Assembly (NCBI GenBank): GCA_963666205.1
Contig: OY762654.1
Location: forward strand, 2,592,001-2,656,000
Origin: Synergistales bacterium
GTDB taxonomy: Bacteria > Synergistota > Synergistia > Synergistales > JAFGMB01
Reading direction: 5' to 3'
DNA length: 64,000 bases
The position numbers and the translations under genes were made by a program. Each line of letters begins with the position of its first letter. The first letter of the stretch is position 1. The notes beneath the pieces are model-generated. The model saw only the letters and a program-made list of their open reading frames with translations, had not been told where the DNA came from and did not search any database. This document shows positions 39,247 through 58,266 of this stretch, piece after piece.

Positions 39247-39693
39247 TTGAAGGTAATATTAGTTGAAGATGTAAAGAAACTTGGGAAAAAGGGTGAACTT
39301 GTCGATGCTTCTGACGGTTATGCCAGGAATTTCCTTATTCCGAGAGGTTTAGCCGAAGAGGCTACTGCACCCAGACTTCAGGAATGGAAACAGAAACAAA
39401 GATCTATGGAAGCAAAGGAATCCAGGCTGAAGCAGAATGCGGATGATATAAGAAAGCATCTCCAGGGAAAACAGGTCAAAGTTAAAGTGAGTTGCGGTGA
39501 AACCGGTAAGTTATTTGGAAGTGTTACAAGTTTACACGTGGCTGAGGCTATCAAAGAGCAGATGGAGGTTGATGTAGCCAGAAAAGATATAAAGATGGCT
39601 GAAGTCATAAAGAATACTGGCCTATATCCCTTTACAATTAAACTGTACCCAGGCGTAGAGGCCAAAATGACATTGACCGTAGAGGGTGAATAA
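39247..39693 (+). CDS. rplI: 50S ribosomal protein L9
   Basis: KVILVEDVKKLGKKG, DGYARNFLIP, GKLFGSVT. Confidence 0.97.
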   Translation: MKVILVEDVKKLGKKGELVDASDGYARNFLIPRGLAEEATAPRLQEWKQKQRSMEAKESRLKQNADDIRKHLQGKQVKVKVSCGETGKLFGSVTSLHVAEAIKEQMEVDVARKDIKMAEVIKNTGLYPFTIKLYPGVEAKMTLTVEGE

Positions 39694-42053: not shown

Positions 42054-43860
42054 CAATATAAAATCCTTTTCCCCTTCCCTTGGGAGTTCAAATTCACCCG
42101 AAGATGGGTTGAACAGCACAAAGGGTCCTGTACCGGACGTGGTTTTTTTTATCCTCGTCCTTGTCTCTCTTGCTCTTCCCAATATTATTTTTTCGGGTAT
42201 GTTCTGGTTTCAGACCCTCCATTTAATGAAATGGTTCGTGGCGATGGTTCCCATAGGTATCCTTTCATTGTTCCTCGGATTCAGACTATTGCGTTCAGGA
42301 GCCTCAGATATTGGTTTCAGGATAGATATCTTTGGCTGGATCTGGCTTTTTTTATTGCTTTATATTACTCTCCAGCCACTTTGGGTTGATATTCGTTCTG
42401 TGCCGACCTTTGTTCGGGAATGGTTCTTTTTTGCAACTCTCTGGATTACTTACATCCTGTGCTATAACTTTTTCAGAGGTAAATATCTTCGACCCATACT
42501 ATGGCTGGCAAACATCAATGCGGCATTGAATGTTATTTTCGCTGAGTTACAGATAACGTCTTTAAATTCGCCCTTCCCTTTTATCCTTCCTACACCAGGA
42601 AATTATATAGGTAATACAGGTCAGCAGAATATGTTGGGTTTCTGGCTTGCGATATGTGCTTTGAACAGTATATTTCTTCATGTAGCATATAGATCAGAAA
42701 AGGATTCGAATACTTTAACTGGCAGATTGTTGAAATATTCCAATCTCTGTATATTAGCTCTCCTGGGTTGGGGTATCTGGAACAGCACCAGCAGGTCAGC
42801 CATACTTTCCCTCCTGTGCGGTATATTATTCTTTCTAATTCTTATTCTCAGGGACATGAAAAAAGAGCATCTTAGAAGGCTTGCATTAGTAGTTCTCATA
42901 TTTGTAATAGCTCTTTCTTCAGCGATGGTATTTAGTCAGCAAAGGGTCGGTAAGATGATATCAAAAACTTTTGATATTGTGAAAAATCCGGAAAAAATAG
43001 CCAATAGAGATTCCATCTGGTTGAGTTCCTGGTCCATGTTCACAAGTCAGCCCATCAAAGGTGTAGGATTGGGGCAGTACAAATGGCATTATCTTGATGG
43101 GCAGCGTGAAATGCTGAAAAAACATCCCCATATGGACTGGAAGTTCACCTATTGGGCCCATAATGAATACCTTCAGTGGTTCTGTGAAGCAGGACTTATC
43201 CCGGGGATCATATTAATGGCTATGGCTTTCTGGTGGCTCTGGTCCCTTTTCAGATGGGTGATATTGAAAAAACAGATATCCCTTGAGGCTGTCTGGGGTA
43301 TTTCCATGCTTGGGCTGATCTGGTTCAATGCCATCTGGACCAGACCCTTCCACCGTATAGAGGATGCCCTTTGGATGTCCTTTGCTTTTGCTCTTGCCAA
43401 CAGGGATATCCTGCCTCTGGAATCATCGTGGACAAAGGTGAGGAGAGGCTATCTTTATCGCGCTCTTGGAGCATTGATCCTTTTTTGTTCGATAGTTGGG
43501 TTCGGGTATCTTTTTCATGGAATGCAGGGAGATTTATTGTTAAGAAAGGCTGTTCAGACCAAGCACCCATTCACTCAACGCACCTACCTTGAAAGGGCTT
43601 ATGATCATCTTCTGGTAAGGGATATAGCCGAAAGACAGCTTGCTTACCATTACCTTTCTATTGGAGCCGCCAGCAAGAATACAGATTATACTGTCGAGGG
43701 AGTGGAAAGGCTATACAGGTATTTTTTAAGGGAACCCCATTCAAGGGAACTGAAAACCCTTATGGACTGGGGTGTCAGACTTCAGAATGTAGAATTGACA
43801 AGGGAGATAGCTTCCTATCTCAAACCTGGTTCATATAATCTGCAAATGAGGAAAAATTGA
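42025..43860 (+). CDS. O-antigen ligase family (Wzy_C) membrane protein, PglL-like O-oligosaccharyltransferase candidate
   Basis: About 12 TMs; GNTGQQN, STSRSA, R..IW....MF...PIKGVGLGQY, AHNEYLQWFCEAG; soluble C-terminal tail. Confidence 0.8.
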   Translation: MDSMKKKQTDNIKSFSPSLGSSNSPEDGLNSTKGPVPDVVFFILVLVSLALPNIIFSGMFWFQTLHLMKWFVAMVPIGILSLFLGFRLLRSGASDIGFRIDIFGWIWLFLLLYITLQPLWVDIRSVPTFVREWFFFATLWITYILCYNFFRGKYLRPILWLANINAALNVIFAELQITSLNSPFPFILPTPGNYIGNTGQQNMLGFWLAICALNSIFLHVAYRSEKDSNTLTGRLLKYSNLCILALLGWGIWNSTSRSAILSLLCGILFFLILILRDMKKEHLRRLALVVLIFVIALSSAMVFSQQRVGKMISKTFDIVKNPEKIANRDSIWLSSWSMFTSQPIKGVGLGQYKWHYLDGQREMLKKHPHMDWKFTYWAHNEYLQWFCEAGLIPGIILMAMAFWWLWSLFRWVILKKQISLEAVWGISMLGLIWFNAIWTRPFHRIEDALWMSFAFALANRDILPLESSWTKVRRGYLYRALGALILFCSIVGFGYLFHGMQGDLLLRKAVQTKHPFTQRTYLERAYDHLLVRDIAERQLAYHYLSIGAASKNTDYTVEGVERLYRYFLREPHSRELKTLMDWGVRLQNVELTREIASYLKPGSYNLQMRKN

Positions 43861-43896
43861 CCCCTTTTTCCTTGCTGAACCCTTGTGGAGGATTTT

Positions 43897-44484
43897 ATGG
43901 TTAAGTCCAGAAAAGCCTTTACCCTTATCGAAATACTTGTAGTAATAGCCATTACTGGAGTTATTCTTACAGCAGCCATGGCTCCAATTGTCCTTACAGT
44001 AAGGAACCTCAGGATTACGGAAAAGGATTTTGGAACCAGGGAGGCCATGTGGAAGTCTTTGTCTTTTATTGCAAGAGATCTTCGGCAGTCCATTCCCGGA
44101 CCATCAGGTCCGTCACTGAAACTGTTACATGGTGAAAGACTTGGAGACGGAGCAGATGATATAGTCTGTTTCTGGAGTTCTTTGCCCATTTCACACGGTA
44201 TGCCTCCTGGTTCTGTTATGTACAGGATCATTTCCGAAAGGAATCAACTTCCCGGACTTTACAGAGTTGTTTTTCCATCCCTTGAACCTGCTAAAATCGA
44301 TTGCAGAGAAATGCCTGAAAAGGATCTTCAGATACTCATCCCTTACGCTGAAAGCTTTCGTATCTCTGTATGGGATGGAGAAACATGGGTTGAAGAATAT
44401 GAAGGTCCTCGACCAGCCGGTGTTCGCTTTACCCTTGAAAGACGGGGAGAGGTGGTAGAATATGTTGACTGGATCCCAAGATAG
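43897..44484 (+). CDS. gspJ: T2SS minor pseudopilin, GspJ-like
   Basis: Class III signal RKA-FTLIEILVV; IARDLRQ; WDGETWVEEY..PRPAGVRFTL. Confidence 0.75.
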   Translation: MVKSRKAFTLIEILVVIAITGVILTAAMAPIVLTVRNLRITEKDFGTREAMWKSLSFIARDLRQSIPGPSGPSLKLLHGERLGDGADDIVCFWSSLPISHGMPPGSVMYRIISERNQLPGLYRVVFPSLEPAKIDCREMPEKDLQILIPYAESFRISVWDGETWVEEYEGPRPAGVRFTLERRGEVVEYVDWIPR

Positions 44485-45382
44485 GAAACATGGATTTATA
44501 CTTGTTTCCATCCTTCTTGTCCTGACAGTCCTTCTTTCCTGTACTGTAGGTTACGCATGGTTCGCAAGGGCCCAGTTCAAGCGGATATCTGCAGAAAGAT
44601 TTGAACTTCGCTCAAGGAGTATTGCCTATGCTGCGGTATTGCAAATAGCCAAAGGACTGCAGTATGATAAGAACGATTATGATTCCTATACTGAAGAATG
44701 GTTCGGGCAGAACGCTATTCCCATAGATGATCTGGGAATTCTGCTTGTTAATATTGAACCTCTGGATGACCTTTTTCCTGTGAATGAACTATTTCTACCA
44801 GATGGAGTTACCCTTCGTAATGAAATCAGGGCACCCTGGGAGAAAATATGGAAAGATCGCAATCAGGAAGGCTGGGGAACTGTCATCCTTGATTTTCTTG
44901 ATGAGGATGTCAAGCCCAGATTGGGAAGCTATGAAAGGCGTTTTTTCATCAACAGGGACATAGCCGATCTTTCAGACTTTCTTGTACTGGAGGGTTTTCC
45001 GCAGGAACTCATTTCAGGAAATGCTGGCATGACAGGACTCAAAGAACTTCTTACTCCATGGAGCTCTGGTAAGATCAACATTAATGTTGCCCCCCTTGAA
45101 GTTCTTGTCCTGCTTGATGGTATAGATGAATCTATCGCTGGAGATATAATTGAAACAAGAGCTGTTAACCCTTTCACGGATCTGAAGGATCTGACAGAAA
45201 TGCAGTCTTTCTCTGAAGCTCTTGTGCCTCGTATAATGAATATGGTTACATTTAAAAGCACCTACTTTCGAGTAGTTATGAAGGTCTTAAGACCCGATAA
45301 CGAATCAGCGATGATCTATCGCGTTATTCTTAAAAAAGACGGTTCCAGAAGCACGTCCATAGTAAAATGGGAGGAAATCTAA
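44462..45382 (+). CDS. gspK: T2SS minor pseudopilin GspK
   Basis: HG-FILVSIL (no E5), DSYTEEW, ILDFLDED, GKININVAP..VL..LDGI. Confidence 0.85.
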   Translation: MLTGSQDRKHGFILVSILLVLTVLLSCTVGYAWFARAQFKRISAERFELRSRSIAYAAVLQIAKGLQYDKNDYDSYTEEWFGQNAIPIDDLGILLVNIEPLDDLFPVNELFLPDGVTLRNEIRAPWEKIWKDRNQEGWGTVILDFLDEDVKPRLGSYERRFFINRDIADLSDFLVLEGFPQELISGNAGMTGLKELLTPWSSGKININVAPLEVLVLLDGIDESIAGDIIETRAVNPFTDLKDLTEMQSFSEALVPRIMNMVTFKSTYFRVVMKVLRPDNESAMIYRVILKKDGSRSTSIVKWEEI

Positions 45383-45385
45383 AGA

Positions 45386-46561
45386 ATGACCAGATCCCCT
45401 AGCAAGGTCCTTATATGCTCTTCTGCCGGAGAGATAACATTCTTGCCCCGTAATCTTCTAGAACGGATTCCCCTCAAAAGGGGAGAATCTCTTTGTCTGA
45501 TGCCTTTTAAAAGCCTTTCCATACAGCCCTTTTCATATCCCTTTACGAATCTTTCCCAGATAAGAGAAGCACTGGCAATAAAGGTTAGACCCTATAGAAT
45601 AGAGGGTAAGGGAGTTGAGATTTTTCCCGCTGTTTTTGATAAGGATGGCAGATCTTCCCGGGGGGTTGCATGGTTTATTTCTTCCGATGAACTGGAAAAA
45701 ACTGAGGCGAACCTGACGGATATTTCCGGAAATATCATGAATTGGCCATTGCCAATGGCTTTTGCTTCAAAGGTGAATGGTACTGGATCAGTTATCTGGA
45801 CCGATGGCGAAAGTATCTGTTCAATGCTCTTCAAGGGTTATTATCCTGTGCTTTACAGATGGAATGTTTATTCTGAAAATTGCACAGAAAGAGAAAAACA
45901 ATGGCTTTATTCCTATTCCCGTTCAAGTGGCGATGAGATTGAAGAGGCAGTGGTCATTGACTCCAGGAAAACAGAGGAGTATGAAAGCCTGGTTTCAACT
46001 TCCCTTCTGGAGACACTGAAGGCTTTTCCCAGATATTCCCAGATAAATGTTTCTAAAAAGGTAATGGATTCATTTCTTATGACCGAACGAATGACAGGTC
46101 TTTTGAGCAGGATCCTTTCTGTAATACTTGTTTCCGGCATCCTTTTTGCTTCGGGTTCTTTTATCAGGTATTCATCTTCTGAAAGGCATCTGGAAACCCT
46201 GCAGACGAGGAGTATTGAAGTATTCAGGGATGTTTTCCATGCCAGGGACAGGATTATTGATCCGCTAAGCCAGGCTAAGTCCATAATTGCTGAAATAGCA
46301 GGGACTGAAAAAGGACTTTCTCTTGAAGAACTTATGGCCCGCATTGGAATGGCATGGTCAGAGGTTGAGCAAAGTGGGATAGTGTTAAACTCTATAAGGT
46401 ACAGTGGAGATTATATGGACATGTCTGGTACTGCATCAGAGATGGTTTCGGTTCAGGTACTTCAGAAATCCCTCGATACTAAGGAAATCAAAAGCAGTAT
46501 CGGGGATATTCAACAGATACCAGGCGGTGGTATCAGGTTTAATATGACCATCAGGTGGTGA
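45386..46561 (+). CDS. gspL: T2SS inner-membrane platform protein, GspL-like
   Basis: Cytoplasmic domain, single TM near residue 250, IIDPLSQAK periplasmic motif; position after gspK. Confidence 0.7.
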   Translation: MTRSPSKVLICSSAGEITFLPRNLLERIPLKRGESLCLMPFKSLSIQPFSYPFTNLSQIREALAIKVRPYRIEGKGVEIFPAVFDKDGRSSRGVAWFISSDELEKTEANLTDISGNIMNWPLPMAFASKVNGTGSVIWTDGESICSMLFKGYYPVLYRWNVYSENCTEREKQWLYSYSRSSGDEIEEAVVIDSRKTEEYESLVSTSLLETLKAFPRYSQINVSKKVMDSFLMTERMTGLLSRILSVILVSGILFASGSFIRYSSSERHLETLQTRSIEVFRDVFHARDRIIDPLSQAKSIIAEIAGTEKGLSLEELMARIGMAWSEVEQSGIVLNSIRYSGDYMDMSGTASEMVSVQVLQKSLDTKEIKSSIGDIQQIPGGGIRFNMTIRW

Positions 46562-47073
46562 TTGACATGGCTCGTTTCCCTTCTGACATCAATGAAAAAC
46601 TGGGTTCTATGCTATCCTTTCCAGGATTCAGGAAAGTGGTGCTGCTTTTCCTCGGATGTTTCCTTGTGTGGGGAAGTTCTATCTATTTTCTTCAGGAAAA
46701 GGCGACATTATTGTCAAGGATAACTATCCAGGAAAGACGATTCAATGAACTTCTACAACTTGCTGCTACATACAAGAGGCTTTCTCTACCCCTTGCTGGG
46801 GAGGATATGAGTGCTTTTGAGGGGAAAGATCCGGTAGAGATAATATCTTCTACTCTGGACCAGGTCGGACTTAAATCCAACCTTGTCCAGTTATCAGTAT
46901 TATCCAGCGGTGTCAATGTACAGTTGGAAGATCTTTATGGAGAGGATATGGGAACATTTATCCAGCAGATCCGACTGAATGGTCTGGAAATAATGTCCGC
47001 TGAAATAAAGACTCTTCCACAGGGTGAGGGTCTTCTATTCAGCCTTTCAATGATAGTAGGTAAACGATTATGA
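46555..47073 (+). CDS. T2SS protein, GspM-like
   Basis: Single N-proximal TM, coiled coil, small C-terminal domain; position after gspL. Confidence 0.6.
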   Translation: MVIDMARFPSDINEKLGSMLSFPGFRKVVLLFLGCFLVWGSSIYFLQEKATLLSRITIQERRFNELLQLAATYKRLSLPLAGEDMSAFEGKDPVEIISSTLDQVGLKSNLVQLSVLSSGVNVQLEDLYGEDMGTFIQQIRLNGLEIMSAEIKTLPQGEGLLFSLSMIVGKRL

Positions 47074-47672
47074 GGTCGTCTTTTCGTTTTATTTTCCTCA
47101 TATTTATGTTTCTTCTGTTATTTTTTTCTTTTTCATGGCTCCTTTTTCCCTGGGAAGGGGCGGGAAGTTTTGTCCTTGGAAGGATACAGAATGAATTGCA
47201 GACAAGAGGGGTCTATGTGAACTATGAGGATCTCAACAGAGAGAATCTGGTTGATCCTGTTCTCGTAATGAAAGATACTTCTTTAGTGTATCTTATGGGA
47301 AATCTCCAGGTCGGTGTAGTGAAAGTAAGTCCTGATATAGTATCCTCCATTTTGAGTCTTAAACCTTCCCTTCGTGTTAGCCTTCAGGAAGGAATTGTCT
47401 TTATTGGAGGAGAAGAATCAGGTACCTTCGGAAATGGGGAATTTATCCTTCGAGTTCTTCCGGGTAAAATATTTGTGGATGAAGTAAGTTTTAAAGGAGA
47501 TATTTCAGCTTCCGGAGATATGGTTTTTGATACATCTGCAGGCGGGATAAATTCAGCATCCCTGGTTTTCAGGGTTCCAGAAAAACTGGAAGTATTTCTC
47601 AAGGCTCTATCAAGAAGCAGGACACTCAACAAAAACAACTCAGGGGAATGGCAGTTTATAATTAAAAAATAG
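47070..47672 (+). CDS. T2SS protein, GspN-like
   Basis: N-terminal TM ending LLFPW, beta-rich remainder; position after gspM. Confidence 0.5.
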   Translation: MRSSFRFIFLIFMFLLLFFSFSWLLFPWEGAGSFVLGRIQNELQTRGVYVNYEDLNRENLVDPVLVMKDTSLVYLMGNLQVGVVKVSPDIVSSILSLKPSLRVSLQEGIVFIGGEESGTFGNGEFILRVLPGKIFVDEVSFKGDISASGDMVFDTSAGGINSASLVFRVPEKLEVFLKALSRSRTLNKNNSGEWQFIIKK

Positions 47673-47685
47673 GGAGAGAGTTCGA

Positions 47686-48630
47686 ATGATAAAGAGCAGG
47701 ATATTCCTTGGGCACTTTTCATATAATAGCGTATCAGTTCTATCTATTATAGAAAAAATGCTGCCCTTTATGGCCTCGATAATGATAGCTTTTGCTCTTG
47801 CATGGGTCTCTTCTTCTTCTCTTGACTGGTACTTTACACTCAGAAATTATGAATCTGACCGGATCTCTATGCTTGAAGCGAAGGGTTTGGAAGCAGGACT
47901 TGTCATCCCTGGAGGAACAAGTCCTGCTATCAGTGATTTTGTAAGCGCAAACCCCTTTAATGTTATGGAATATGAAAAAAACCATTCAGGACCTGCTTCT
48001 ACAGAAAAAAAAGAAGAGATATTTTCCCTTGATGGCATGACTCTTTCAGGCACAATTCCGGGAATAGGGGCTCAGCTCCGTGATGGAGAAGCGACACCCT
48101 TTATCTTAAGTGGCCAGGAATACAGAGGATACACTCTTCAGGACGTTGAGAGTAACAGGGCCTTTTTTTTCAAGAATGATGATGAATTTATCCTTCATCT
48201 CTTCTATGGCCAGAACGGAGACAGCAAGAAAGGTTCGGGGAAAAATCCATCTCAGGTTAAACAGACTTTGCCGGTAAGAGAAAATCCAGGTATAGCTCCT
48301 GCCGAAGTTGGTCAAAACGGTACTATTGCCAGGGAGCTTGTCAACGATCTACTAATGAACCCTTTCAATGAAATGAAAAAAGTTCGGTTGAGGGCGAAGT
48401 TTCAGGACGGTGAGGCCCTTGGAATTGAAGTTCAGTGGCTTGCCAGGGATAGTCTGCTTGGAGAACTTGGAGTAGAAAAGGGAGATATAGTCCAGTCTAT
48501 AAACAGTGTACCCATTAACAATATGGGGGATATTTCCAATGCAATCAATTCCCTTATGGGTGGAGACCGCTTTGAAGTAGAGGTCCTTCGAAAAGGGGAA
48601 AAGGTTCCCCTGACCTATACGGTAAAGTAG
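47686..48630 (+). CDS. gspC: T2SS protein GspC with PDZ domain
   Basis: TM, TLSGT..G (HR domain), LGVEKGDIVQSINSV...VEVLRKGE PDZ. Confidence 0.8.
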   Translation: MIKSRIFLGHFSYNSVSVLSIIEKMLPFMASIMIAFALAWVSSSSLDWYFTLRNYESDRISMLEAKGLEAGLVIPGGTSPAISDFVSANPFNVMEYEKNHSGPASTEKKEEIFSLDGMTLSGTIPGIGAQLRDGEATPFILSGQEYRGYTLQDVESNRAFFFKNDDEFILHLFYGQNGDSKKGSGKNPSQVKQTLPVRENPGIAPAEVGQNGTIARELVNDLLMNPFNEMKKVRLRAKFQDGEALGIEVQWLARDSLLGELGVEKGDIVQSINSVPINNMGDISNAINSLMGGDRFEVEVLRKGEKVPLTYTVK

Positions 48631-48636
48631 AAGATT

Positions 48637-48984
48637 ATGATATCCAGGAAGGGTCTCTATTCCAGAAGCGGTGCTTTTACTCTTATTGAAGTTCTTGTTG
48701 CAGTCATCATTTTAGGATTGGTCGCCACTGCATCTTTTCGGTTGATGATAATGTCAGGTCGTACTATCAGAGAGGTGCAGGTTCAGAGAGAACTCCTGAA
48801 TAGGGCAAGGGAGATCCAGTTTTCCATGCTTTTCCAGGAAAAGGCAGATAGCGGTATAGAGAAGGATATGGCCTGGGAGACAAGAAAAATCTCTCAGCCG
48901 GTTTTCGGAGGCAAGTGGGAAGTTGCTTATCGCAGGGTTGATCTTACCTATAAAGGCAGAACTATAGTGATTTATTTGCCGTGA
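48637..48984 (+). CDS. gspI: T2SS minor pseudopilin, GspI-like
   Basis: GA-FTLIEVLVAVIIL; 115 aa. Confidence 0.7.
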   Translation: MISRKGLYSRSGAFTLIEVLVAVIILGLVATASFRLMIMSGRTIREVQVQRELLNRAREIQFSMLFQEKADSGIEKDMAWETRKISQPVFGGKWEVAYRRVDLTYKGRTIVIYLP

Positions 48985-49004
48985 AAAAAGGAAGGGGTGA
49001 AGCT

Positions 49005-50963
49005 ATGAAAAGATATCTTGTAATTCTTCTAGCTTTGTTGATGTTTTTATCTTTTGGAATTGATTCTACCCGGGCACAGGATACCTCTGATGAACAGAAT
49101 CTGCTTCAGGCAGCGGGAATGATGAGGGAATCAGGAAGGGTACAGTTCAACTTCTCAGATATCGACATCGTAAAATTTATTCGATTCATGTCAGAACTGC
49201 TCCAGGAAAATATTATCGTGCCTCCATCCGTAAAGGGAAACATTTCAGTCATTTCTCCCCAACCGGTTCCACTGGACCAGGCAAGGCAGGTTATGCTTTC
49301 TGTTCTTGAGATGAACGGATTATCCGTTCAGGAAATGGGACAGTACAGTAAAGTGGTACCCCTGAAGGCAGGTTCAGGAATCGAAAACGTTATTAGAAAA
49401 GGTAAAATGGGACCTGGAGTAGGAGAACAGGTTGTAGCCCAGGTGGTACCTCTGGATTATGTGTCTGCAGCATTTGTAGCGGATGCGGTTAAACAGATAT
49501 CTGGAAAGGATGTTGGCATCCTTCCCATAGGCATGGGTAACGAGATCCTTCTCACCGGTAAAGCATCTGATGTAAACCGGGCTGTCAGCCTTGTACAGAC
49601 CCTTGATGTTCCAGACAGTATCCGTACAAGCAGATCCGTAACATTAAAGTATTCTTCCCCAAGGGTTGTTGAATCCCATCTGAATTCCCTTGCCAAGGAT
49701 AAGTCAGGCCCAGTCAATGGCCTGGTGGCAATAGCAGATGAAGCAAGCAGCAAGATCATCCTGGTAGGTGAAAGGAATACCCTGTCTGCCGCATGCAGGA
49801 TCATACGTGACATAGATATTCCCGCACGTTCTGGAGACTTTCATGTTTATAAACTTCAGAATGCCGATGCTGAAAAGGTTGCCGAGCAGCTGAGCCAGAT
49901 ACTGGATGTTTCCGCCCGCCTGCAGACCAATAAAAAGGAAGGACAGGCGTCCACTCCTACAACGGTGGTAGCGGATATCCCAACCAACAGCCTCATCTTT
50001 GCAGTGCCTCAACACCAGTACCAGTCTATAGTGGATATAATCGAACAGATAGATATCCAGCCCAAACAGGTTATGCTCAGGGGCCTTATCGCGGAGGTCA
50101 ATCTGACAAAACTCAATGATGCCGGCATCGACTGGGCCACATGGGGGGGTGCTGTTACTGGAGATGCTTATATTGCAGCCCAGGCCCAGCTTGGTAATGC
50201 ATCGGTCCCGGCAGAGATAATTAATTACTTCCAGAATCTGACTACAACGGAAAGAGAAATATACAATGATGCGGGTAATGTAGTTGGTACTATAACAGAG
50301 TATGATACCAAGGCTCTCGTCTACTCTTACATTAAACTTACAAAACAGTTTGATGCCATAAACGTCCTTTCAATGCCGAGACTTCTCTGCACGGACAACA
50401 TGCCAAGCGAACTCCAGGTTGGACAGGTTATACCACAGTTAAGTGCAAAAACTTCAGATATAACCAACCCGAATTCAGTTCAGAACAGCTATGATTACAA
50501 GGATACCGGGTTGATATTGAACGTTACTCCCCATATTCGCAGTGGAAATCTTGTATCCCTGGAAATAGAGCAGAGTACGGAAGAGGTTCTCAGTGCGATG
50601 ACATCAGATACTCCTGTAACAGCAAAGAGGAAGATCAAGACTACCGTGCAGGTTGAAAATGGAAAGACGGTTATCCTGGGCGGTCTGATCAGGGAAGCAG
50701 AAAAAGCCATGAAACAGAGAGTTCCCGGACTTTCCTACATACCATTGGTGGGCAATCTTTTCAAAAGTTCGACAAAACAGAGGGAAAAGATCGAACTCAT
50801 GGTGTTCCTGACGCCATATATTCTGGAGACTCCCAAAGAGGCTTCCAGTTTTACCAGCCAGATAGTAATTTCAGGGGATCATGGAATGAATGAGGCGGAA
50901 AGGGCCCTTCAGGAACGCCTTGAAAGGGAATACCAGGAGATCCTTAAAAAGGAAAGCCAGTGA
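49005..50963 (+). CDS. gspD: T2SS outer-membrane secretin
   Basis: Signal peptide; FNFSDIDI..FI, N-domain repeats, DIQPKQVMLRGLIAEV, YKDTGLILNVTPHI, VPGLSYIPLVGNLFKS, ELMVFLTPYI. Confidence 0.95.
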   Translation: MKRYLVILLALLMFLSFGIDSTRAQDTSDEQNLLQAAGMMRESGRVQFNFSDIDIVKFIRFMSELLQENIIVPPSVKGNISVISPQPVPLDQARQVMLSVLEMNGLSVQEMGQYSKVVPLKAGSGIENVIRKGKMGPGVGEQVVAQVVPLDYVSAAFVADAVKQISGKDVGILPIGMGNEILLTGKASDVNRAVSLVQTLDVPDSIRTSRSVTLKYSSPRVVESHLNSLAKDKSGPVNGLVAIADEASSKIILVGERNTLSAACRIIRDIDIPARSGDFHVYKLQNADAEKVAEQLSQILDVSARLQTNKKEGQASTPTTVVADIPTNSLIFAVPQHQYQSIVDIIEQIDIQPKQVMLRGLIAEVNLTKLNDAGIDWATWGGAVTGDAYIAAQAQLGNASVPAEIINYFQNLTTTEREIYNDAGNVVGTITEYDTKALVYSYIKLTKQFDAINVLSMPRLLCTDNMPSELQVGQVIPQLSAKTSDITNPNSVQNSYDYKDTGLILNVTPHIRSGNLVSLEIEQSTEEVLSAMTSDTPVTAKRKIKTTVQVENGKTVILGGLIREAEKAMKQRVPGLSYIPLVGNLFKSSTKQREKIELMVFLTPYILETPKEASSFTSQIVISGDHGMNEAERALQERLEREYQEILKKESQ

Positions 50964-50988
50964 TCTGATACTGATTTACAGAGATACT

Positions 50989-51014
50989 AAAGGGAGCCCT
51001 GTGGGTTCCCTTTT
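50989..51014 (+). terminator. Intrinsic terminator after gspD
   Basis: AAAGGGAGCCC-TGT-GGGTTCCCTTTT. Confidence 0.75.
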
Positions 51015-51063
51015 GCATTTGTAATGATATAGTATTGTTAATAAATGATTATAAACAGGGGAG

Positions 51064-51852
51064 ATGGATTTGGGACCTGTAATAGCTGTTGCCAATCAAA
51101 AGGGAGGGGTCGGTAAAACTACCCTTGCTGTTAACATTGCGGCATGTATATCCTATAGGTGGAAAGATACGGGAAGGCGAATACTTCTAGTGGATACTGA
51201 CCATCAGGCCAATGCTTCCTACATACTTTCCCGGGATTCGGGCAAATACGAGGAGACTCTTGCGGCTATCTATCAGGATGAAATAGCCCGGGATTACGGA
51301 GACCTGATTCAGGCTACCAATGTTTCGGGAGTAGATATTGTGCCTGCATCTCCCATGATGGCCTCTGAAGAGATGAAGCTTGCCAGTAGGGAGAAGAAGG
51401 GTTACAGGCTCAAGTATTTCCTGGAGTTCAATGCTTCAAATTATGATCTGGTTATTATAGACTGCCCGCCAGCTATAAATCTGTTTGTTCTCAATGCTTT
51501 TTATGTTGCAGACCAGATACTTGTTCCCCTTCCTCCTGAAGATCTGGCTATACAGGGATTCCAGCAGTTGATGGCCCAGGTCCAGGCTGTAAGAGAAGTA
51601 AACCCTGGCTTGTCATTCCTTGGCGTAGTTGTCAACATGCTTACCGATAGAGTACGGATACACAGGGAGATAAGGTGTTTCCTGGAAGAAGAATTTGGTG
51701 ATAAGCTATTGGGCATAATACACAGGTCTGTCAGGATACAGGAGGCAGAAGCCATGAATCTGACCCTTCTCGATTATTCAAGAACCTCCCGTTCTTTCAA
51801 GGAATTTCTTGGAGTTGCTGACAATATTATTGAAGATCTGGGGTTGAAATAG
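51064..51852 (+). CDS. ParA/Soj-family ATPase (orphan, inside the T2SS cluster)
   Basis: Deviant Walker A ANQKGGVGKTT, DTDHQANAS, IIDCPP, IHRSVRIQEAE. Confidence 0.93.
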   Translation: MDLGPVIAVANQKGGVGKTTLAVNIAACISYRWKDTGRRILLVDTDHQANASYILSRDSGKYEETLAAIYQDEIARDYGDLIQATNVSGVDIVPASPMMASEEMKLASREKKGYRLKYFLEFNASNYDLVIIDCPPAINLFVLNAFYVADQILVPLPPEDLAIQGFQQLMAQVQAVREVNPGLSFLGVVVNMLTDRVRIHREIRCFLEEEFGDKLLGIIHRSVRIQEAEAMNLTLLDYSRTSRSFKEFLGVADNIIEDLGLK

Positions 51853-51853
51853 A

Positions 51854-53638
51854 ATGGGGCAGAAAAAATTCAGATACAGTAAGCATAATCCGCTCAAAGA
51901 ACTTGTCATTGAAACTTTCGGGGATGAAAAGACAGAAGCGGAGAAAAAGGAAATAACTGATAATGACCAGAGATCGTCCAAGGATATCCCGGTAAGAATA
52001 AGGGAGAATCCATCAGAAAATCTTTCTGATTCTGAATCTGAGCACGAAAATCTTCCAGAGCCTTTTGCCAGGGATAATTCATCGGAAACGGCAGAAGAAA
52101 GTCAGTTTGAAACTGAAAGTGTTCCTGATAACAGGGGGAGTTCCGGATCGATTGAAGATGGTCCATCTCTTCCAGCTCCATCAGTGATCGCATCCTTTCT
52201 ACCTAATTCCATAAGTCTGGATTCCCTCCGTCAGTCCAGCATCCTGCCTATAAGGATAAACGAAAATGTTCTGACAGTTGCTGTGCCCACCATGGATCTT
52301 TATCCCAGTGCCCAGATGCTTGGAAGTGTTTTCGGAAGGGCAGTGGAGATAGAGATACATGATCAGCAGATGATAGACAGGATAATCAGGATTCTTTACG
52401 ATATCAGGAGTGGAGTAGCGGATGAAACGGTCCAGGCTGTCGAGGGGATAGAGGATATAAACGATCTGACAAGGGAGGATGTGTTGAGCGACTCTGTTGA
52501 TGTTCCTGTCATCAAACTTGTTAATGGACTTATTCTCGATGCAACCCGCCAGAGAGCGACAGATATCCATGTAGAACCTTATGAAGACCATGTTCAGGTA
52601 AGATTTCGTATTGACGGAGTCCTTCATGACAGGTTGCGTCTGCCAAGAACCCATCAGGCACCGCTTACAAGCAGGATTAAGGTAATGGCAAGGCTTGACA
52701 TAGCAGAACATATGATACCCCAGGATGGAAGGATCGGTATCACCATAGGTGGTCGAGCTGTAGATATAAGGATAGGGATTGTTCCAACCCAGCACGGAGA
52801 GAGAATTGCTCTGAGGGTTCTCGACAAGGCCCAGGGTGTATTGACGCTTGAAGAACTGGGGATGGCGAAAATTGAAAGAGAGAGCATGGATGAGCTCATA
52901 AGATCTCCACATGGAATGATCCTTTTTACCGGCCCTACAGGTTCGGGTAAGACCACCACTATGTATGCCATACTTCAGGCTCTTTCCAGACCGGAAGTGA
53001 ATATTATAACTGTAGAGGATCCTATAGAGTACGATCTGCCTGGAGTGGCACAGATACAGGTCAATGAAAAAGCAGGAGTGACCTTTGCTTCTGCTCTGCG
53101 ATCCATACTGCGACAGGATCCGGATATAGTAATGATAGGTGAAATGAGAGATTATGATACGGCTCATATTGGTGTACAGGCTTCACTTACCGGTCATCTT
53201 GTTCTCTCCACTCTTCACACAAATGATTCGGTGAGTGCGGTAATAAGATTGATAGATATGGGGGTAGAGCCCTACCTGGCCTCCGGGTCCCTTATCGGAG
53301 TAGTTGCCCAGAGACTGGTCAGAAGGATCTGCCCGGAGTGCAGGTATAGAATTGCCCCCCCTGCCATCATAAGATCCCAGGGGGTAGATACTGCATATAT
53401 GGGAAAGGGATGCGAACATTGTAAATGGACCGGTTATCATGGCAGGGTTGGTCTATACGAGCATTTTCTTGTAAGCAATGTTATTGCAGAGGCTATCTCT
53501 TCTTCCGCCCCGGCTTCGAGATTAAGAGAGCTTGCAAGGGAACAGGGTTTCAAAACTTTATGGGAAATAGGTCTTAATGCAGTTTCATCAGGTATAACTT
53601 CTCCGGAAGAACTTCTCCGCGTGACAGGAGAGGATTAA
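51854..53638 (+). CDS. gspE: T2SS assembly ATPase GspE with ~105-aa N-terminal extension
   Basis: ATDIHVEP, PQDGRI, GPTGSGKTT, TVEDPIEY, LRQDPDIVMIGEMRD, STLHTND, CPEC/CEHC. Confidence 0.96.
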   Translation: MGQKKFRYSKHNPLKELVIETFGDEKTEAEKKEITDNDQRSSKDIPVRIRENPSENLSDSESEHENLPEPFARDNSSETAEESQFETESVPDNRGSSGSIEDGPSLPAPSVIASFLPNSISLDSLRQSSILPIRINENVLTVAVPTMDLYPSAQMLGSVFGRAVEIEIHDQQMIDRIIRILYDIRSGVADETVQAVEGIEDINDLTREDVLSDSVDVPVIKLVNGLILDATRQRATDIHVEPYEDHVQVRFRIDGVLHDRLRLPRTHQAPLTSRIKVMARLDIAEHMIPQDGRIGITIGGRAVDIRIGIVPTQHGERIALRVLDKAQGVLTLEELGMAKIERESMDELIRSPHGMILFTGPTGSGKTTTMYAILQALSRPEVNIITVEDPIEYDLPGVAQIQVNEKAGVTFASALRSILRQDPDIVMIGEMRDYDTAHIGVQASLTGHLVLSTLHTNDSVSAVIRLIDMGVEPYLASGSLIGVVAQRLVRRICPECRYRIAPPAIIRSQGVDTAYMGKGCEHCKWTGYHGRVGLYEHFLVSNVIAEAISSSAPASRLRELAREQGFKTLWEIGLNAVSSGITSPEELLRVTGED

Positions 53639-53639
53639 T

Positions 53640-54788
53640 TTGCCACAGTTTGCTTACACTGCTTACGATAACAAAGGAAAAGTGAAAAAGGGTTTCATGG
53701 AAGGTTCAGCCTCTTCTGCTGTGATAGGACAGCTCGAAAGCAGGGGCTTCATTGTCGTTGAAGTCAACCAGATTGTAAAAACCAGGAAAAAGGGCAGGAT
53801 AAGATCCCTTCCTCTGGAAGCACAGGCCATGTTCTGTCGAAGTATTTCGTCATATCTTAAAAGCGGACTTTCTCTTACGGATACTCTTAAGCTTCTTGCC
53901 AAACAGTCTTCGGAGAAAAAGGTCTCTGATGCCTATGCCTCTATACTTGAAGAGATACAGGCAGGACGAAAGTTTTCTGTTGCTCTCGAGGATCTGGGTA
54001 TCTTCCGGGAAAGCCTGAGGCGAGTAGTGGAATCCGGAGAGCAGAGCGGAACCCTTATAGATGTCCTGAAGCAGACGGCAGATCAGCTTAAACTCGAAAT
54101 ATCTCTGAGGCGCAAAGTTCGAGCTGCCTTGACATATCCCATTGTTATGGTTTTTGTCGGTATTGGTGTTGTATCCTTTCTGTTAGCTTATGTGGTTCCA
54201 AAGCTGGCAGATCTTTTTGCAGACATGGGACAGGATCTTCCCATCCCCACCAGGATCCTGTTAACTTCCTCTGAAATTATTAAAACTGGAGCAATACCAT
54301 TTCTTATCCTGATCCTTATGGCATCTTTATACTTTCGCCGAAAGAAGAAAGACCTTCCCTTTTTTCGTAAATTAAGGGAAAAAATAACCATATCTGTGGT
54401 AACTTCCCAACTGGGTACACTTCTGGATTCAGGGATTCCCCTGGTTCAGGCCCTTCGCATGTCTGCTCCGATGGATCGCAGGGCGGAGAGATGGCTTCAT
54501 GTAGCAGGTCTTGTCAAAGAGGGTTACCGTTTTGATACGGCTCTTGAAAGGGAGGGTTCTTTTCCCGAAGAAATGCTATATATTATCCGTGTTGGAGAAA
54601 TGGGAGGGGATCTCTCGGGATCATTAAGACACATATCTGAAAATAACTGGGAGATCGCAGAGAGCCAGATGGAAAGGCTGGCTTCTCTTATAGAACCGGT
54701 AATGGTACTTTCTCTCGGTTTAATTGTCGGTTTTATTGTTGTAGCCATTTTGTTGCCTATCTTTGATCTATCAAGCCTAGTAAAATAA
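53640..54788 (+). CDS. gspF: T2SS inner-membrane platform protein GspF
   Basis: PQFAYTAYD..GK, SGEQSGTL, AALTYP, LPIPTRIL, VGEMGG.L, LIEP, AILLPIF. Confidence 0.95.
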   Translation: MPQFAYTAYDNKGKVKKGFMEGSASSAVIGQLESRGFIVVEVNQIVKTRKKGRIRSLPLEAQAMFCRSISSYLKSGLSLTDTLKLLAKQSSEKKVSDAYASILEEIQAGRKFSVALEDLGIFRESLRRVVESGEQSGTLIDVLKQTADQLKLEISLRRKVRAALTYPIVMVFVGIGVVSFLLAYVVPKLADLFADMGQDLPIPTRILLTSSEIIKTGAIPFLILILMASLYFRRKKKDLPFFRKLREKITISVVTSQLGTLLDSGIPLVQALRMSAPMDRRAERWLHVAGLVKEGYRFDTALEREGSFPEEMLYIIRVGEMGGDLSGSLRHISENNWEIAESQMERLASLIEPVMVLSLGLIVGFIVVAILLPIFDLSSLVK

Positions 54789-54837
54789 TATGGTCTTTAT
54801 CTTTTGCAGCCCGAAGAAAATAACAGGAGGTGTCTGG

Positions 54838-55272
54838 ATGTCCTTTCGGAAGAGCAGGTTTAGAGGGGGTTTCACCCTGGTTGAGATCCTGGTGGTCGTA
54901 GTCATACTTGGTTTGCTTGCAACCCTTGTTGCACCCAGAGTGATAGGAAGAGGAGAAGAGGCCAAAAGAACGTCTACCCTTGTTCAGATAAGGGAGATAG
55001 AACAGGCTCTGGATCTTTATAAACTGGATAATGGTTTTTATCCTGTAACAGATCAAGGTCTTGAAGCCCTGGTAACAAAACCGGCATCATCCCCTGAGCC
55101 TTTGAAATACAGGAATGAAGGCTACATGAAAAAAGTGCCCCTCGACCCTTGGGGAAGTCCTTATGTATACCGTTGTCCGGGAGATCATGGGGAATATGAC
55201 CTTTTCTCCTATGGACCGGATGCTGAGGAAGGTGGAGAAGGGAAGAACCAGGATATAACAAGCTGGGAATGA
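54838..55272 (+). CDS. gspG: T2SS major pseudopilin GspG
   Basis: GG-FTLVEILVVVVILGLLA, ALDLYKLDNG.YP...QGLEALV, DPWGSPY.Y, SYGPD; AGGAGG before ATG 54838. Confidence 0.96.
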   Translation: MSFRKSRFRGGFTLVEILVVVVILGLLATLVAPRVIGRGEEAKRTSTLVQIREIEQALDLYKLDNGFYPVTDQGLEALVTKPASSPEPLKYRNEGYMKKVPLDPWGSPYVYRCPGDHGEYDLFSYGPDAEEGGEGKNQDITSWE

Positions 55273-55724
55273 TACCTTCTAATGCCATCAAGGAGGGACA
55301 TGCGGGTTTTACCCTGGTAGAACTGGTTATCACCGTAGCCTTGATAGGGCTAATCTCCTTTACCCTTTTTCCGCGTATCACTACTGAAAGGGATAATAAT
55401 GAAACGCTTCTTCTCCAGAGATCTATTTACGAAGCCATGGATGTTGCATCCAGTGGTTATCCCCTCCGGTTCATCATCGATTTAAAGGGGAAACTTAAAG
55501 CAGAAGTTCTGGTGATAACTGAAGACCTGGGAGAACAATGGAATAAACTTGAACTTAAATGGCTTCCAGTAAATTCCGGATGGAAGTCAGAGGCTACTGT
55601 GTTCTATATCTATCCCGATGGAACATGTTCTCCCTGGCATCTTGTTCTTGAAAAGAAAGATTATAGAACGGTTTACCTGGTATCAGTGACCGGACATGTT
55701 TACGAAGTTAAAGGCTCGCCCTAG
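55269..55724 (+). CDS. gspH: T2SS minor pseudopilin, GspH-like
   Basis: AG-FTLVELVI, FYIYPDGTCSP; overlaps the gspG stop. Confidence 0.75.
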   Translation: MIPSNAIKEGHAGFTLVELVITVALIGLISFTLFPRITTERDNNETLLLQRSIYEAMDVASSGYPLRFIIDLKGKLKAEVLVITEDLGEQWNKLELKWLPVNSGWKSEATVFYIYPDGTCSPWHLVLEKKDYRTVYLVSVTGHVYEVKGSP

Positions 55725-55768: not shown

Positions 55769-57877
55769 TCAGGAAATATTAAGGAGCTCTCTATATCTTG
55801 GGTAAGGCCAGATGTCGTGATCAATAATCCTTTCGCAGCTGTCACACATTTCTCTTATTGCAGAGAAAAGATCCAGTCCCTCCTCAGTGAGTACCTTTGC
55901 CTGTTCTTCCAGTTTAAGGGGCTGAACCCTGTTTCTCAGATCATCCAGTTTTTCAATTGAAGAGATAAGACCGGACTTGAGCCTCGTCAGCCTTCCGAGG
56001 TAGCCATTCCAGGGTTTCAGATCAAATTCTCCTTCAGGTACGGCACTTAGAGCCTTATTTTCGAGTGCCATCTGTTTGGATATGGCTGGAAGGATGCCTT
56101 CCCAGACCATCGAATCAAGCATTCCCATCTCGATGTCCAGAGTCTTTACATACTGTTCGAGTCGTATTTCATAGTATGCATCTATCTCTCTATCGGTCAT
56201 TATATTAAGGCTTGAAAGGAGTTCCCTGTATTCAGGAACGAGATAAAGTTCCAGAGCTTCAGGAGTAGTATTGGCCATGGTTAGACCCCTTTTCTTTGCT
56301 TCTTCAAGCCATTCTTCGGAGTAACAATTACCTTCAAATCGAATAGCACTGCTTTCCCGGGCTGCGAACTTGATGGAGTCAAGGGCAGCATCGATAACGT
56401 CAACTTCGTTCATTCGAGCCTCTATCTTTCCAGCTATCTCGTTAAGGCCCCAGGCCCATATTGCACATATCATTGTAAGAGGCCCCCCCATGGCTTGTGG
56501 AGCTCCCGGAGCGCGGAATTCGAACTTGTTACCCGTGAATGCCATTGGTGCAGTCCTGTTCCTGTCCGTATTATCCATTATAATTGCCGGGAGCCGGTTA
56601 AGGCCAAGGTCCATGGTGTTTTTAGTGGGAAGATCTTCTGGAAGTCCTTTCTCGATCTTATCAAGAAGGTCGGTAAGTTCCTTACCCAGGAATACGCTCA
56701 TGATAGCTGGAGGTGCCTCGTTACCTCCAAGTCTGTGCATGTTGCCAGGTGAAGCAATAGATGCCCTTAGTAGATCTATATACCTGGAGAGACCATATAG
56801 AAGTCCTCCGAGGAAAGTAAGGAACTGAACATTCCTTCTTGAATTGGTGGAAGGCTGAAGAAGGTTCCTTCCCTCACTGTCCATTATGGAAAAGTTTGTG
56901 TGTTTTCCGCTTCCGTTCAAACCAGCAAAGGGCTTTTCATGGAGAAGAAGGCTTAGATTATGTCTCCTGGCCATCTTTCGAAGAGTTTCCATGATAAGCT
57001 GGTTCTGGTCACAGCCCAGGTTTGCTTCTGTGAACTGCGGTGCGCATTCGAACTGGCAGGGAGCAACCTCATTGTGGCGTGTTGTCAGGACTACTCCAAG
57101 GCGGTAGAGATCCCTCTCTACATCTTCCATGAAGGACAATATCCTCGGGTGGATGGAACCGAAATAATGGTCTTCCATCTGCTGTCCCTTTGGAGGAGGA
57201 GATCCTATGATACTTCTTCCACAGAACTGTAGATCTGGTCTTTTCCTGGCGATATCGTTGTCTACCAGAAAATACTCCTGCTCCCCTCCCACTGTTACCT
57301 TTGCCCATTTAACCCCACGATTCCCGAAAAGTTTCAATACTCTCATGGCTGCCTCTTCGACTGCATTGAGAGATTTCATAAGAGGGGTCTTGGTATCCAG
57401 GGGAGTTCCGTCATAGGATATGAAAACAGAAGGTATACAGAGTGTCCCACCCTTTTTACTCTTGATTATATAGGCTGGACTGGTGGGGTCCCATGCAGTA
57501 TATCCCCGGGCCTCGAAGGTTGCGCGGAGACCTCCGGAAGGAAAAGAAGATGCATCCGGCTCACTCTGTACAAGTTCCTGCCCCTTAAAGGATTCAAGGG
57601 GTATTCCCGTTTCATCGACCGTGAGAAATGCCATATGCTTTTCGGCAGTGGCTTCTGTTCTTGGCTGGAACCAGTGGGTATAATGTGTTGCTCCGTTTGA
57701 GATAGCCCATTCCTTCATTGCAGAGGCTACCATATCTGCAATTCCGGGATCGAGTTTCTGGCCACCCTCAATTGAATCCAGCAGTTTTCTGAAAACCTCT
57801 TTTGGAAGTCTCTCCCTCATTACCTTTCTGTCGAAAACATTTACTCCGAAAATTTCCTTGGGTCTTTCGAAAGACAT
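55769..57877 (-). CDS. glnA: Glutamine synthetase type III (702 aa)
   Basis: GATHYTHWFQP, EPDASSFPSGGLRATFEARGYTAWD, HNEVAPCQFE, HEKPFAGLNGSGKH, DRNRT.P.AFTGNKFEFR. Confidence 0.96.
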   Translation of the reverse strand: MSFERPKEIFGVNVFDRKVMRERLPKEVFRKLLDSIEGGQKLDPGIADMVASAMKEWAISNGATHYTHWFQPRTEATAEKHMAFLTVDETGIPLESFKGQELVQSEPDASSFPSGGLRATFEARGYTAWDPTSPAYIIKSKKGGTLCIPSVFISYDGTPLDTKTPLMKSLNAVEEAAMRVLKLFGNRGVKWAKVTVGGEQEYFLVDNDIARKRPDLQFCGRSIIGSPPPKGQQMEDHYFGSIHPRILSFMEDVERDLYRLGVVLTTRHNEVAPCQFECAPQFTEANLGCDQNQLIMETLRKMARRHNLSLLLHEKPFAGLNGSGKHTNFSIMDSEGRNLLQPSTNSRRNVQFLTFLGGLLYGLSRYIDLLRASIASPGNMHRLGGNEAPPAIMSVFLGKELTDLLDKIEKGLPEDLPTKNTMDLGLNRLPAIIMDNTDRNRTAPMAFTGNKFEFRAPGAPQAMGGPLTMICAIWAWGLNEIAGKIEARMNEVDVIDAALDSIKFAARESSAIRFEGNCYSEEWLEEAKKRGLTMANTTPEALELYLVPEYRELLSSLNIMTDREIDAYYEIRLEQYVKTLDIEMGMLDSMVWEGILPAISKQMALENKALSAVPEGEFDLKPWNGYLGRLTRLKSGLISSIEKLDDLRNRVQPLKLEEQAKVLTEEGLDLFSAIREMCDSCERIIDHDIWPYPRYRELLNIS

Positions 57878-58266
57878 ATGGTTTTCACCTCGTTCTTTAG
57901 TATAGTCAGAAAAAGAATATTGCATTATATATCATGAATCTAAAAAACATGCAAGCAATTTCACAAAAAGAGTGTCTAGTAAACTGGATATCATGCAAAA
58001 AAGAATAAATAAAGCCAAATAAGCATGTTTACATTGTCGTAATTATAGATATATAAGTCTGGATATGATTCTTCTGAGTGATAAGAAAGGGAAATATATT
58101 TTCAATTCTCAAGAATGCGGGGTCTGTATCAATTTACAAACTACCATTTAGAATGTGCAGAATAAAAATAGAATCTTCTCTTTTATCAAGTTATCTTCTA
58201 TGGACATAAATTGATGTAAAATCTAAGATAGAAATAATATTCAATTTGATAGAGGAGTGGTCTTCC

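Follow-up and report, generated by a model that had tools for sequence, protein, structure and literature searches.

A Soj-like ParA ATPase encoded beside a tagged GspE motor in a type II secretion cluster of a Synergistales bacterium

Introduction

Why would a gene cluster for a type II secretion system (T2SS) encode a ParA-type ATPase? The question is raised by a stretch of 64,000 nucleotides from a Synergistales bacterium (assembly GCA_963666205.1, contig OY762654.1, positions 2,592,001 to 2,656,000 of the forward strand), here called the window, in which an open reading frame (ORF) of the ParA family, ParA2 (51064-51852), stands between gspD and gspE. The original prediction, made from this DNA, proposed that ParA2 is a nucleoid-based ATPase that spaces or polarises T2SS assembly sites. 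Little is understood of how a cell positions its T2SSs and controls their number. Inferring the cargo of a ParA/MinD ATPase from the genes beside it is a logic that has been used before (PMC10241942), and partners dock on these ATPases through a charged N-terminal stretch, where the partner may belong to the cargo (PMC10241942, PMC11407121). We report here that the GspE associated with ParA2 carries a conserved N-terminal tag followed by an acidic linker, a feature that was not part of that prediction, and we tentatively propose, at a little under even confidence, that ParA2 is an ATPase of the ParA type dedicated to one cargo, the T2SS motor itself.

Results

The GspE proteins of relatives aligned to the GspE of the window (whose genome is labeled G000) only from about residue 100 onward, where the normal N-terminal domain follows the linker. 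Ahead of it lie the tag and a low-complexity acidic linker (Table 1), and no Pfam match was found in GspE residues 1 to 120. The tag was conserved over about 23 residues (K.F.Y..N.L[KR][DE][LM]V[IL]ETFG), with M1, K4, F6, Y8, L14, V18, E20, T21, F22, and G23 invariant in the six genomes that carry ParA2. In the same genomes, the linker varied between 83 and 133 amino acids (aa), with a net charge of -10 to -24, and its only conserved columns were E69 and P91 (with P107 three before residue 113), none lying between the tag and residue 69. The ratio of nonsynonymous to synonymous substitutions (dN/dS) was 0.09 to 0.10 for the tag, compared to 0.56 and 0.16 for the linker.

The strict tag motif was present in all six GspE proteins from ParA2-carrying genomes and, in any frame, at none of 27 loci without ParA2, and it occurred once in a six-frame translation of the genome. 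When a profile of the tag was searched against 5.8 billion proteins, 12 matches were obtained at E ≤ 4e-9, all of them T2SSE proteins or fragments; searching the tag alone in single-protein region mode returned only four near-identical GspEs. The sole match of the profile outside GspE was P0133, an H-NOX protein (PF07700; E 0.97) whose first helix is almost the same as the tag segment ALRDMVLETFG. This likeness is probably due to chance, and it suggests that the second half of the tag may be helical.

The pairing of parA2 and gspE was next followed across genomes. A ParA-like match was found in 52 of 61 genomes (60 relatives and G000), with an orthologue only in G001 (98% identity) and G003 (59 to 65%). 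Extending the search to 268 Synergistota genomes gave seven proteins passing E ≤ 1e-45, namely, six orthologues (53 to 98% identity) and a seventh, 36% identical protein. The orthologues are carried by G000, G001, and G003 (family f1) and by G092 to G094 (genus g32, family f3), which makes three genera in two families; we take these carriers to be heat-loving anaerobic bacteria. The order gspD-parA2-gspE was seen in 6/6 carriers, with the G003 locus split over two contig ends and that of G094 cut at the contig start, so that the adjacency on which the original prediction was built is a conserved one. In the window, the parA2 stop codon TAG ends at 51852 and the gspE ATG begins at 51854, which agrees with the single nucleotide between the two genes described originally. 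Gaps of 1 to 2 nucleotides (nt) separated them in G000, G001, G092, and G093, while the genes were flush or overlapped by 1 to 2 nt in G094 and by 26 nt in G003, the last value being inferred across a contig break.

Orthologue-grade GspE (58 to 72% identity) was present in 33 other genomes. We fetched 30 gspE loci, i.e., G000 and 29 of these 33 relatives (leaving out G059, G055, G033, and G025), and in 27 of the 30, gspD was directly followed by gspE. In the collection of 5.8 billion proteins, only P0001 to P0008 exceeded 55% identity to ParA2, with P0002 to P0007 being orthologues from metagenomes, after which identity dropped to the 38 to 40% of Soj proteins. Single-protein scans of genome_contigs and metagenome_contigs yielded three confirmed loci each, all of which, besides the same-genus genome, were Soj-like at 31 to 37%. 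In a tree of the GspE core (FastTree), the rows with ParA2 did not form one clade and at least three changes were needed; a gain of ParA2 followed by losses and a transfer would be indistinguishable on this tree.

ParA2 has the hallmarks of its family. The deviant Walker A motif KGGVGKT occupies residues 13 to 19, keeping the signature lysine named in the original prediction (K13, along with K18), and K13, K18, D46, N50, and D133 were invariant among the aligned ParA2 rows. By its sequence, ParA2 belongs to the ParA/MinD superfamily, with a deviant Walker A, a catalytic Asp, and a Walker B. Matches to solved structures spanned its full length (8ray ParA, 1e-35; TtSoj, 1.7e-30 over residues 7 to 255), and an AF2 model (pTM 0.83) had Soj/ParA structures as its nearest Foldseek neighbors (TM 0.78 to 0.87), followed by McdA and MinD. 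For parA2, dN/dS was 0.058 (G000/G001) and 0.061 (G092/G093), compared to 0.050 and 0.054 for the GspE core; judging from these ratios, parA2 is a functional gene under purifying selection.

Assignment of ParA2 as a MinD, TadZ/CpaE, or BcsQ protein was considered and rejected, as the corresponding models all scored under their cutoffs: 43.7 bits against 212.9 for MinD (TIGR01968), 18.8 against 154.45 for the CpaE type (TIGR03815), and 62.5 against 157.85 for BcsQ (TIGR03371), with Pfam CBP_BcsQ at 21.1 against 21.3. The ParA2 tail, ...NIIEDLGLK, is unlike the tail of the genome's own MinD, ...GFFAGLKKIFRI, in a comparison of the sequences with no helix predictor. The predicted lack of a MinD-type membrane helix is borne out by this tail and by the MinD model falling far below its cutoff.

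The docking site for a partner on ParA2 was then considered. In HpParA, the ParB peptide sits at L50-G51-F52 in loop L23 (PMC11229316). We located loop L23 in ParA2 through the conserved Asp and Asn ahead of it, without aligning the protein directly to HpParA. At this position, Soj proteins read T-S-G-L, compared to S/T-Y/F-I/L-L in all 10 ParA2 rows covering it, and other surface motifs of ParA2 were also unlike those of Soj. In the GspE tag and linker, a short peptide at the N-terminus is joined to a flexible tether, and partners of ParA/MinD ATPases are reported to dock by such an anatomy (PMC10241942, PMC11407121). A complex of two ParA2 copies, two ATP, and GspE residues 1 to 40 was predicted with custom alignments. 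It scored 0.59 (0.58, 0.60, and 0.59 in the individual runs), with the partner at a pLDDT of at least 56 and a contact agreement of at least 84% between runs, while both partner-swap controls and the ParA-swap control gave 0.00 to 0.02, the best of the three being 0.02. In calibration, 116 of 157 solved complexes passed the mark, as did 2 of 215 mismatched pairs; those passing with scores of 0.60 or below comprised 18 of the 157 solved complexes and both of the mismatches. The modeled ParA2-tag complex may add a small, weak increment of support, and the link of ParA2 to GspE specifically is strengthened by the tag and, weakly, by this prediction.

With regard to translation and transcription, the Shine-Dalgarno sequence AGGGGAG abuts the ATG at 51064 but lies 6 nt before a TTG at 51070. 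ParA2 probably starts at this TTG and has 260 aa instead of 262, because of this spacing and because the database copy, P0001, is 260 aa long. The original prediction had a second transcription unit beginning at parA2, with a terminator after gspD and an extended -10 element. Both are present as sequence: the 100-nt gspD-parA2 spacer folded at -27.4 kcal/mol (z -3.3), its hairpin was kept in the same-genus G001, and a hairpin of different sequence occupied the same place in G003 (genus g3), with no such hairpin in the spacer of genus g32. A consensus promoter and terminator scan of the window flagged neither the hairpin nor TGATATAGT (the promoter scan needs a -35 element), and it found no excess of sites: promoter-like sites numbered 19 where 20.8 were expected, and terminator-like sites 11 where 11.7 were expected. 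Contigs from RNA libraries of two studies bridge the gspD-parA2 spacer (X1 record 1, 48900-51266; X2 record 12, 50892-51511), so that a separate transcription unit is unproven. The parA2-gspE junction was bridged as well (X1 record 4, X2 record 13, X3 record 20, and X4 record 29; two studies), and the gspD-parA2-gspE region is likely expressed. Over 48900-54000, the window has near-identical sequence (95 to 100%) in marine-sediment metatranscriptome contigs (X1 to X4, two studies).

Whether ParA2 would work on the nucleoid depends on the surface that Soj uses to bind DNA, where HpSoj K199/K227/K230/K247 are equivalent to TtSoj R182/R194/R208/R211 and BsSoj R189/K201/R215/R218, and where R189 and R218 of BsSoj matter (PMC6393308). 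ParA2 has R196/E208/R221/R224 at these positions (three of four kept), its arginines aligning with TtSoj R182, R208, and R211, and the ParA2 of genus g32 has R/E/R/I (two of four). R196, the equivalent of BsSoj R189, and R221 were invariant across the ParA2 clade. The basic C-terminal segments that the original prediction matched to the DNA-binding arginines of Soj are therefore borne out for R196, R221, and R224 and not for the fourth patch residue, Glu208.

Several observations weigh against ParA2 being a nucleoid-bound ATPase for GspE. Position 208 was Glu in 12/12 ParA2 rows covering it, compared to R, K, or Q in every Soj row. At position 224 (BsSoj R218), the f1-like subclades had R or K, and g32 had Ile. 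The net charge of tag residues 1 to 13 was +4 in family f1 and -1 to 0 in g32. The AF2 model of GspE, built from six sequences, had a mean pLDDT of 42 and was uninformative on tag and linker. As for the complex, a pass at the 0.59 level that lacks a good prior is, by the calibration of the tool, likelier to be false than true, solved ParA-peptide complexes may be remembered, and custom alignments and ATP lie outside the calibration. The RNA-library contigs may hold DNA and are no proof of one transcript. Finally, the co-occurrence of tag and parA2 is not independent evidence, because the two are adjacent DNA and one indel moves both, and it spans only two or three independent lineages. The evidence that is independent of linkage is that the tag has stayed under selective constraint as the linker drifted.

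From these residues, DNA binding by ParA2 is plausible, although weakened, and the patch is unevenly conserved in the clade. An unlikely alternative, but one to be weighed here, is that ParA2 is a matrix-independent switch or scaffold like TadZ/CpaE or FlhG, which, as an ATP-dependent dimer, would recruit, hold back, or license GspE, by way of the tag or in some other manner, at the assembly platform or a landmark, with the nucleoid uninvolved. The gene context and the tag speak for such a switch as much as for a nucleoid-bound ATPase, the eroded patch (with its invariant E208 and the change of R224 to Ile in g32) fits it, and the secretion-linked members TadZ/CpaE and BcsQ act at poles and not on DNA in the account of PMC11407121. 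However, ParA2 has neither a MinD-like membrane tail nor a TadZ-type N-terminal domain (its Walker A starts at residue 13), two of its patch arginines are invariant, and the sequences and folds closest to it are those of DNA-binding Soj/ParA proteins.

Another candidate partner is encoded at the head of the cluster. The original prediction described ParA2 as an orphan with no adjacent parB; the gene downstream of parA2 is indeed gspE, but a ParB-family gene, ParB2 (41112-42053), lies about 9 kb upstream in the same cluster, where it overlaps the following Wzy_C-like gene. ParB2 is 37% identical to the genome's Spo0J and has an intact GERRLRA box, and it is without the LGxGLxAL-type motif found in that Spo0J. 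ParB2-grade matches were obtained in 24 other genomes. In 16 of these, all of the same order and most of them lacking ParA2, one contig holds both the gene and the orthologous gspE at a distance of 9 to 11 kb (the ParB2-Wzy-gsp arrangement is seen, e.g., in G002:C4, G008:C7, G026:C1, and G057:C3). Since ParB2 is kept without ParA2 and its N-terminus is alike in the ParA2-positive and ParA2-negative genomes of family f1, it is probably an older neighbor in the cluster, and we set it aside as a partner. No match to a parS consensus was found in the window with up to two mismatches, and neither a ParB gene downstream of parA2 nor other mobile genes around it were seen.

These data also bear on the idea that ParA2 acts on some other part, such as the GspL/GspF platform, the secretin, or ParB2, with the GspE extension serving an unrelated end, e.g., control of hexamerisation or another partner. 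Physical linkage alone would explain why tag and parA2 co-occur, the cluster does encode a ParB-family protein whose GERRxRA box is intact, and the score of the ParA2-tag complex was only weak. Nevertheless, we regard this as improbable, given that ParB2 adjoins the T2SS cluster in the 16 other genomes, most of them without ParA2, and has the same N-terminus in family f1 whether or not ParA2 is there, that the tag sits at the extreme N-terminus like the docking stretches of known ParA partners, and that the swap controls all stayed at 0.00 to 0.02.

To place ParA2 among its relatives, we looked at the other ParA/MinD-family members of the genome. A canonical parA-parB (soj-spo0J) pair is found elsewhere, at C1:1740872-1742283 (genes at 1740872-1741594 and 1741717-1742283), and its ParA is 32% identical to ParA2, which is therefore not a displaced sole Soj of this genome. 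Further members in the genome are a MinD, whose neighbor is MinC, and an FlhG-like gene that follows FlhF; by gene neighborhood, each of the four ParA/MinD-family members adjoins what would be its own cargo genes. A maximum-likelihood (ML) tree was built from 62 rows. In it, ParA2 grouped with its orthologues in a clade of their own on a long stem (12 rows, support 97/91), which lay apart from the Soj clade of Synergistota (28 rows, 85/99) and among Soj-like sequences from outside Synergistota (94/78). The comparison with the genome's own Soj thus supports a separate clade but does not settle descent, as a tree joining ParA2 with Synergistota Soj was not rejected in an approximately unbiased (AU) test (p 0.0715), and an ancient duplication and a capture would be indistinguishable as the origin of ParA2 for this reason.

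The sister of the ParA2 clade (support 100/99) is the 36% identical ParA-like protein G083_x, on a 3.4-kb contig without gsp genes. G083_x has 275 aa and is without the Soj arginines. The protein encoded after it has 486 aa, is rich in short tandem repeats (NIASEIDIASNKNLTS-like), and matched no Pfam family; the two (locus L093, G083:C163, 863-3147, minus strand) are possibly a plasmid-type partition pair. The next-best relatives of ParA2 among 1.84 billion representatives were diverse ParA-like proteins sharing 'IH..' and 'P..PE' motifs. Graded metagenomic ParA-like proteins of this kind, P0135 to P0170, ranked above ordinary Soj against the ParA2 profile, with 'IH[RAS]..' replacing 'IPRNVR' and 'P..PE' replacing 'QCEYYALEG', and in P0135 (43% identical to ParA2) the 4-residue insertion that follows helix 1 is found as well. 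A cluster look-up of 10 intermediate relatives gave no useful product names, and their contigs were mostly short (the longest 61 kb).

Such relatives raise the possibility that the partition cassette of a mobile element landed in the cluster and that ParA2 is what remains of it, or a passenger, still serving DNA segregation or having no part in secretion. Besides the tree sister with its repeat-rich neighbor and the diverse next-best relatives, the patchy distribution (6/268 genomes) is in keeping with a passenger. We nevertheless consider it very unlikely, since ParA2 occupies the same slot in three genera at 53 to 65% identity and a dN/dS of 0.06, is tightly coupled to gspE at all five contiguous junctions, and is accompanied by no parS in the window and no downstream ParB or other mobile genes. 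A related idea, which we hold to be doubtful, is that parA2 and the tag-linker 5' end of gspE are a portable module whose capture (possibly from the par cassette of a mobile element) and fusion to the motor would have made the motor its own 'ParB'.

The surrounding genes were assigned with Pfam and NCBIfam (TIGR) models and their cutoffs (Table 1). On the plus strand directly after dnaB (39693-41048) lies a complete T2SS-type cluster, and by these models it is that of a Gsp-type T2SS (secretin, GspG, GspE, GspF, C/L/M, and minor pseudopilins), with a predicted function in secretion. Two of the T2SS models scored below their cutoffs and were still the best matching, namely, TIGR02533 for GspE (582 bits, just below 630) and the NCBIfam model for GspF (263 bits against 424). 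The ParA gene does lie inside this cluster, as originally predicted, and gspF, gspG, and gspH follow gspE as tightly as described. The gene order of the first half (43885-48984) was kept in G001, G003, G092, and G093, and the position of the Wzy_C-like gene relative to the cluster was the same in G001, G092, and G093. Convergent with the end of the cluster is a 718-aa ORF (55769-57925, minus strand), which also adjoins it in G001, G003, and G093 and looks like a type III glutamine synthetase from the appearance of its sequence alone, with no family search.

Table 1. Features of the T2SS cluster around parA2, in window coordinates
Feature	Position	Strand	Basis or remark
ParB2, second ParB-family gene, head of cluster	41112-42053	+	Pfam ParB_N 2.6e-31, HTH_ParB 2.8e-27
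Wzy_C / O-antigen-ligase-like membrane protein	42025-43860	+	Pfam PF04932 8.8e-17
Pseudopilin	43885-44484	+	Pfam N_methyl
GspK-like	44462-45382	+	Pfam T2SSK
GspL-like	45386-46561	+	GspL_C 27.9 bits, under cutoff 29.6
GspM-like small membrane protein	46555-47073	+	T2SSM only E 0.052
Unnamed 200-aa small membrane protein	47070-47672	+	
GspC-like, PDZ-bearing	47686-48630	+	Pfam PDZ_2
Pseudopilin	48637-48984	+	Pfam N_methyl
GspD secretin	48981-50963	+	TIGR02517 416 bits, cutoff 351; Pfam Secretin, Secretin_N, GspD N0
Terminator- or attenuator-like hairpin behind gspD, 11 bp, GC-rich	50989-51013	+	Weak U tail
TGATATAGT, extended -10-like, named in the original prediction	51025-51033	+	Putative; present as sequence only
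ParA2, Soj-like ParA/MinD-family ATPase	51064-51852	+	Pfam AAA_31 2e-44, CbiA 5.7e-21
GspE ATPase, 594 aa, conserved part from about residue 109	51854-53638	+	Pfam T2SSE 2.5e-130
GspE tag, residues 1-25, MGQKKFRYSKHNPLKELVIETFGDE	51854-51928	+	Candidate ParA2-docking peptide
GspE acidic low-complexity linker, residues 26-108	51929-52177	+	
GspF	53640-54788	+	Pfam T2SSF 7e-54
GspG major pseudopilin	54790-55272	+	Pfam T2SSG 8.9e-40; TIGR01710 183 bits, cutoff 88.85
GspH-like pseudopilin	55269-55724	+	Pfam N_methyl

Discussion

The ParA2 arrangement is real, is not accounted for by the housekeeping partition system, and is best read as a previously undescribed variant of ParA-type cargo control, the mechanism of which we infer as follows. 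ATP-bound ParA2 dimers, probably on the nucleoid surface, would bind the N-terminal tag of GspE, which extends on a long linker, acidic and flexible, ahead of the domain that docks GspE to the membrane platform. Binding of the tag would stimulate ATP hydrolysis and release, as the peptides of ParB, McdB, or MinE do, and the resulting cycle could set where, when, or how many copies of GspE, and with them active machines, engage; it could also share GspE between daughter cells. The locus offers a compact case for testing, with one small ATPase, a motor tag of about 23 residues, and sister genera without both that serve as natural minus controls. Should the portable-module idea hold, nucleoid-guided placement of machines of the type IV filament family by way of tagged motors may recur and have gone undescribed.

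To our knowledge, a ParA partner peptide fused to the cargo's own motor has not been encountered before. The literature searched yielded no ParA that serves a T2SS or a GspE/PilB motor, and the excerpts of the review PMC11407121 name none, in agreement with the original prediction, which knew of no described example. The secretion-linked members of the ParA/MinD family listed in that review are VirC1, CpaE/TadZ, and BcsQ (PMC11407121), and PldP has been linked to the dynamics of TatA (preprint 10.1101/2025.07.02.662783). VirC1 (type IV secretion), BcsQ (cellulose secretion), and PldP are tied to export like ParA2 but serve different machines through different partners, none of them with a T2SS or with a tag on a GspE/PilB-type motor.

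TadZ carries an extra, receiver-like N-terminal domain ahead of its ATPase and acts at the pole. TadZ/CpaE of the Tad pilus is a ParA/MinD ATPase encoded in a cluster of the type IV filament superfamily and needed to place or assemble the machine (PMC11407121), and parA2 is likewise found inside such a cluster. ParA2, in contrast, is a bare, Soj-like protein of 260 aa, its host is a Gsp-type T2SS, and the motor is tagged.

McdA and PpfA use the nucleoid as a matrix, have a partner that stimulates the ATPase, and are encoded beside their cargo genes (PMC11407121, PMC10241942). ParA2 resembles McdA-McdB of carboxysomes and PpfA/ParC of chemoreceptor arrays in this placement of its gene. It differs from them in that the cargo would be an envelope-spanning secretion machine, the peptide is in the motor ATPase and not in a separate adaptor, and matrix binding is putative.

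The likeness to Soj/ParA and Spo0J/ParB of type Ib ParABS systems lies in fold, length, deviant Walker A, and the equivalent of R189, and the partner is expected to dock by an N-terminal peptide near loop L23, as in those systems. ParA2 is unlike them in having no downstream parB, no parS in the window, a separate long-branch clade, a replaced L23, and Glu208, and the peptide proposed as its partner forms a fusion with a secretion ATPase. The parA2 locus may be an example of the rewiring of a partition module to serve a protein machine.

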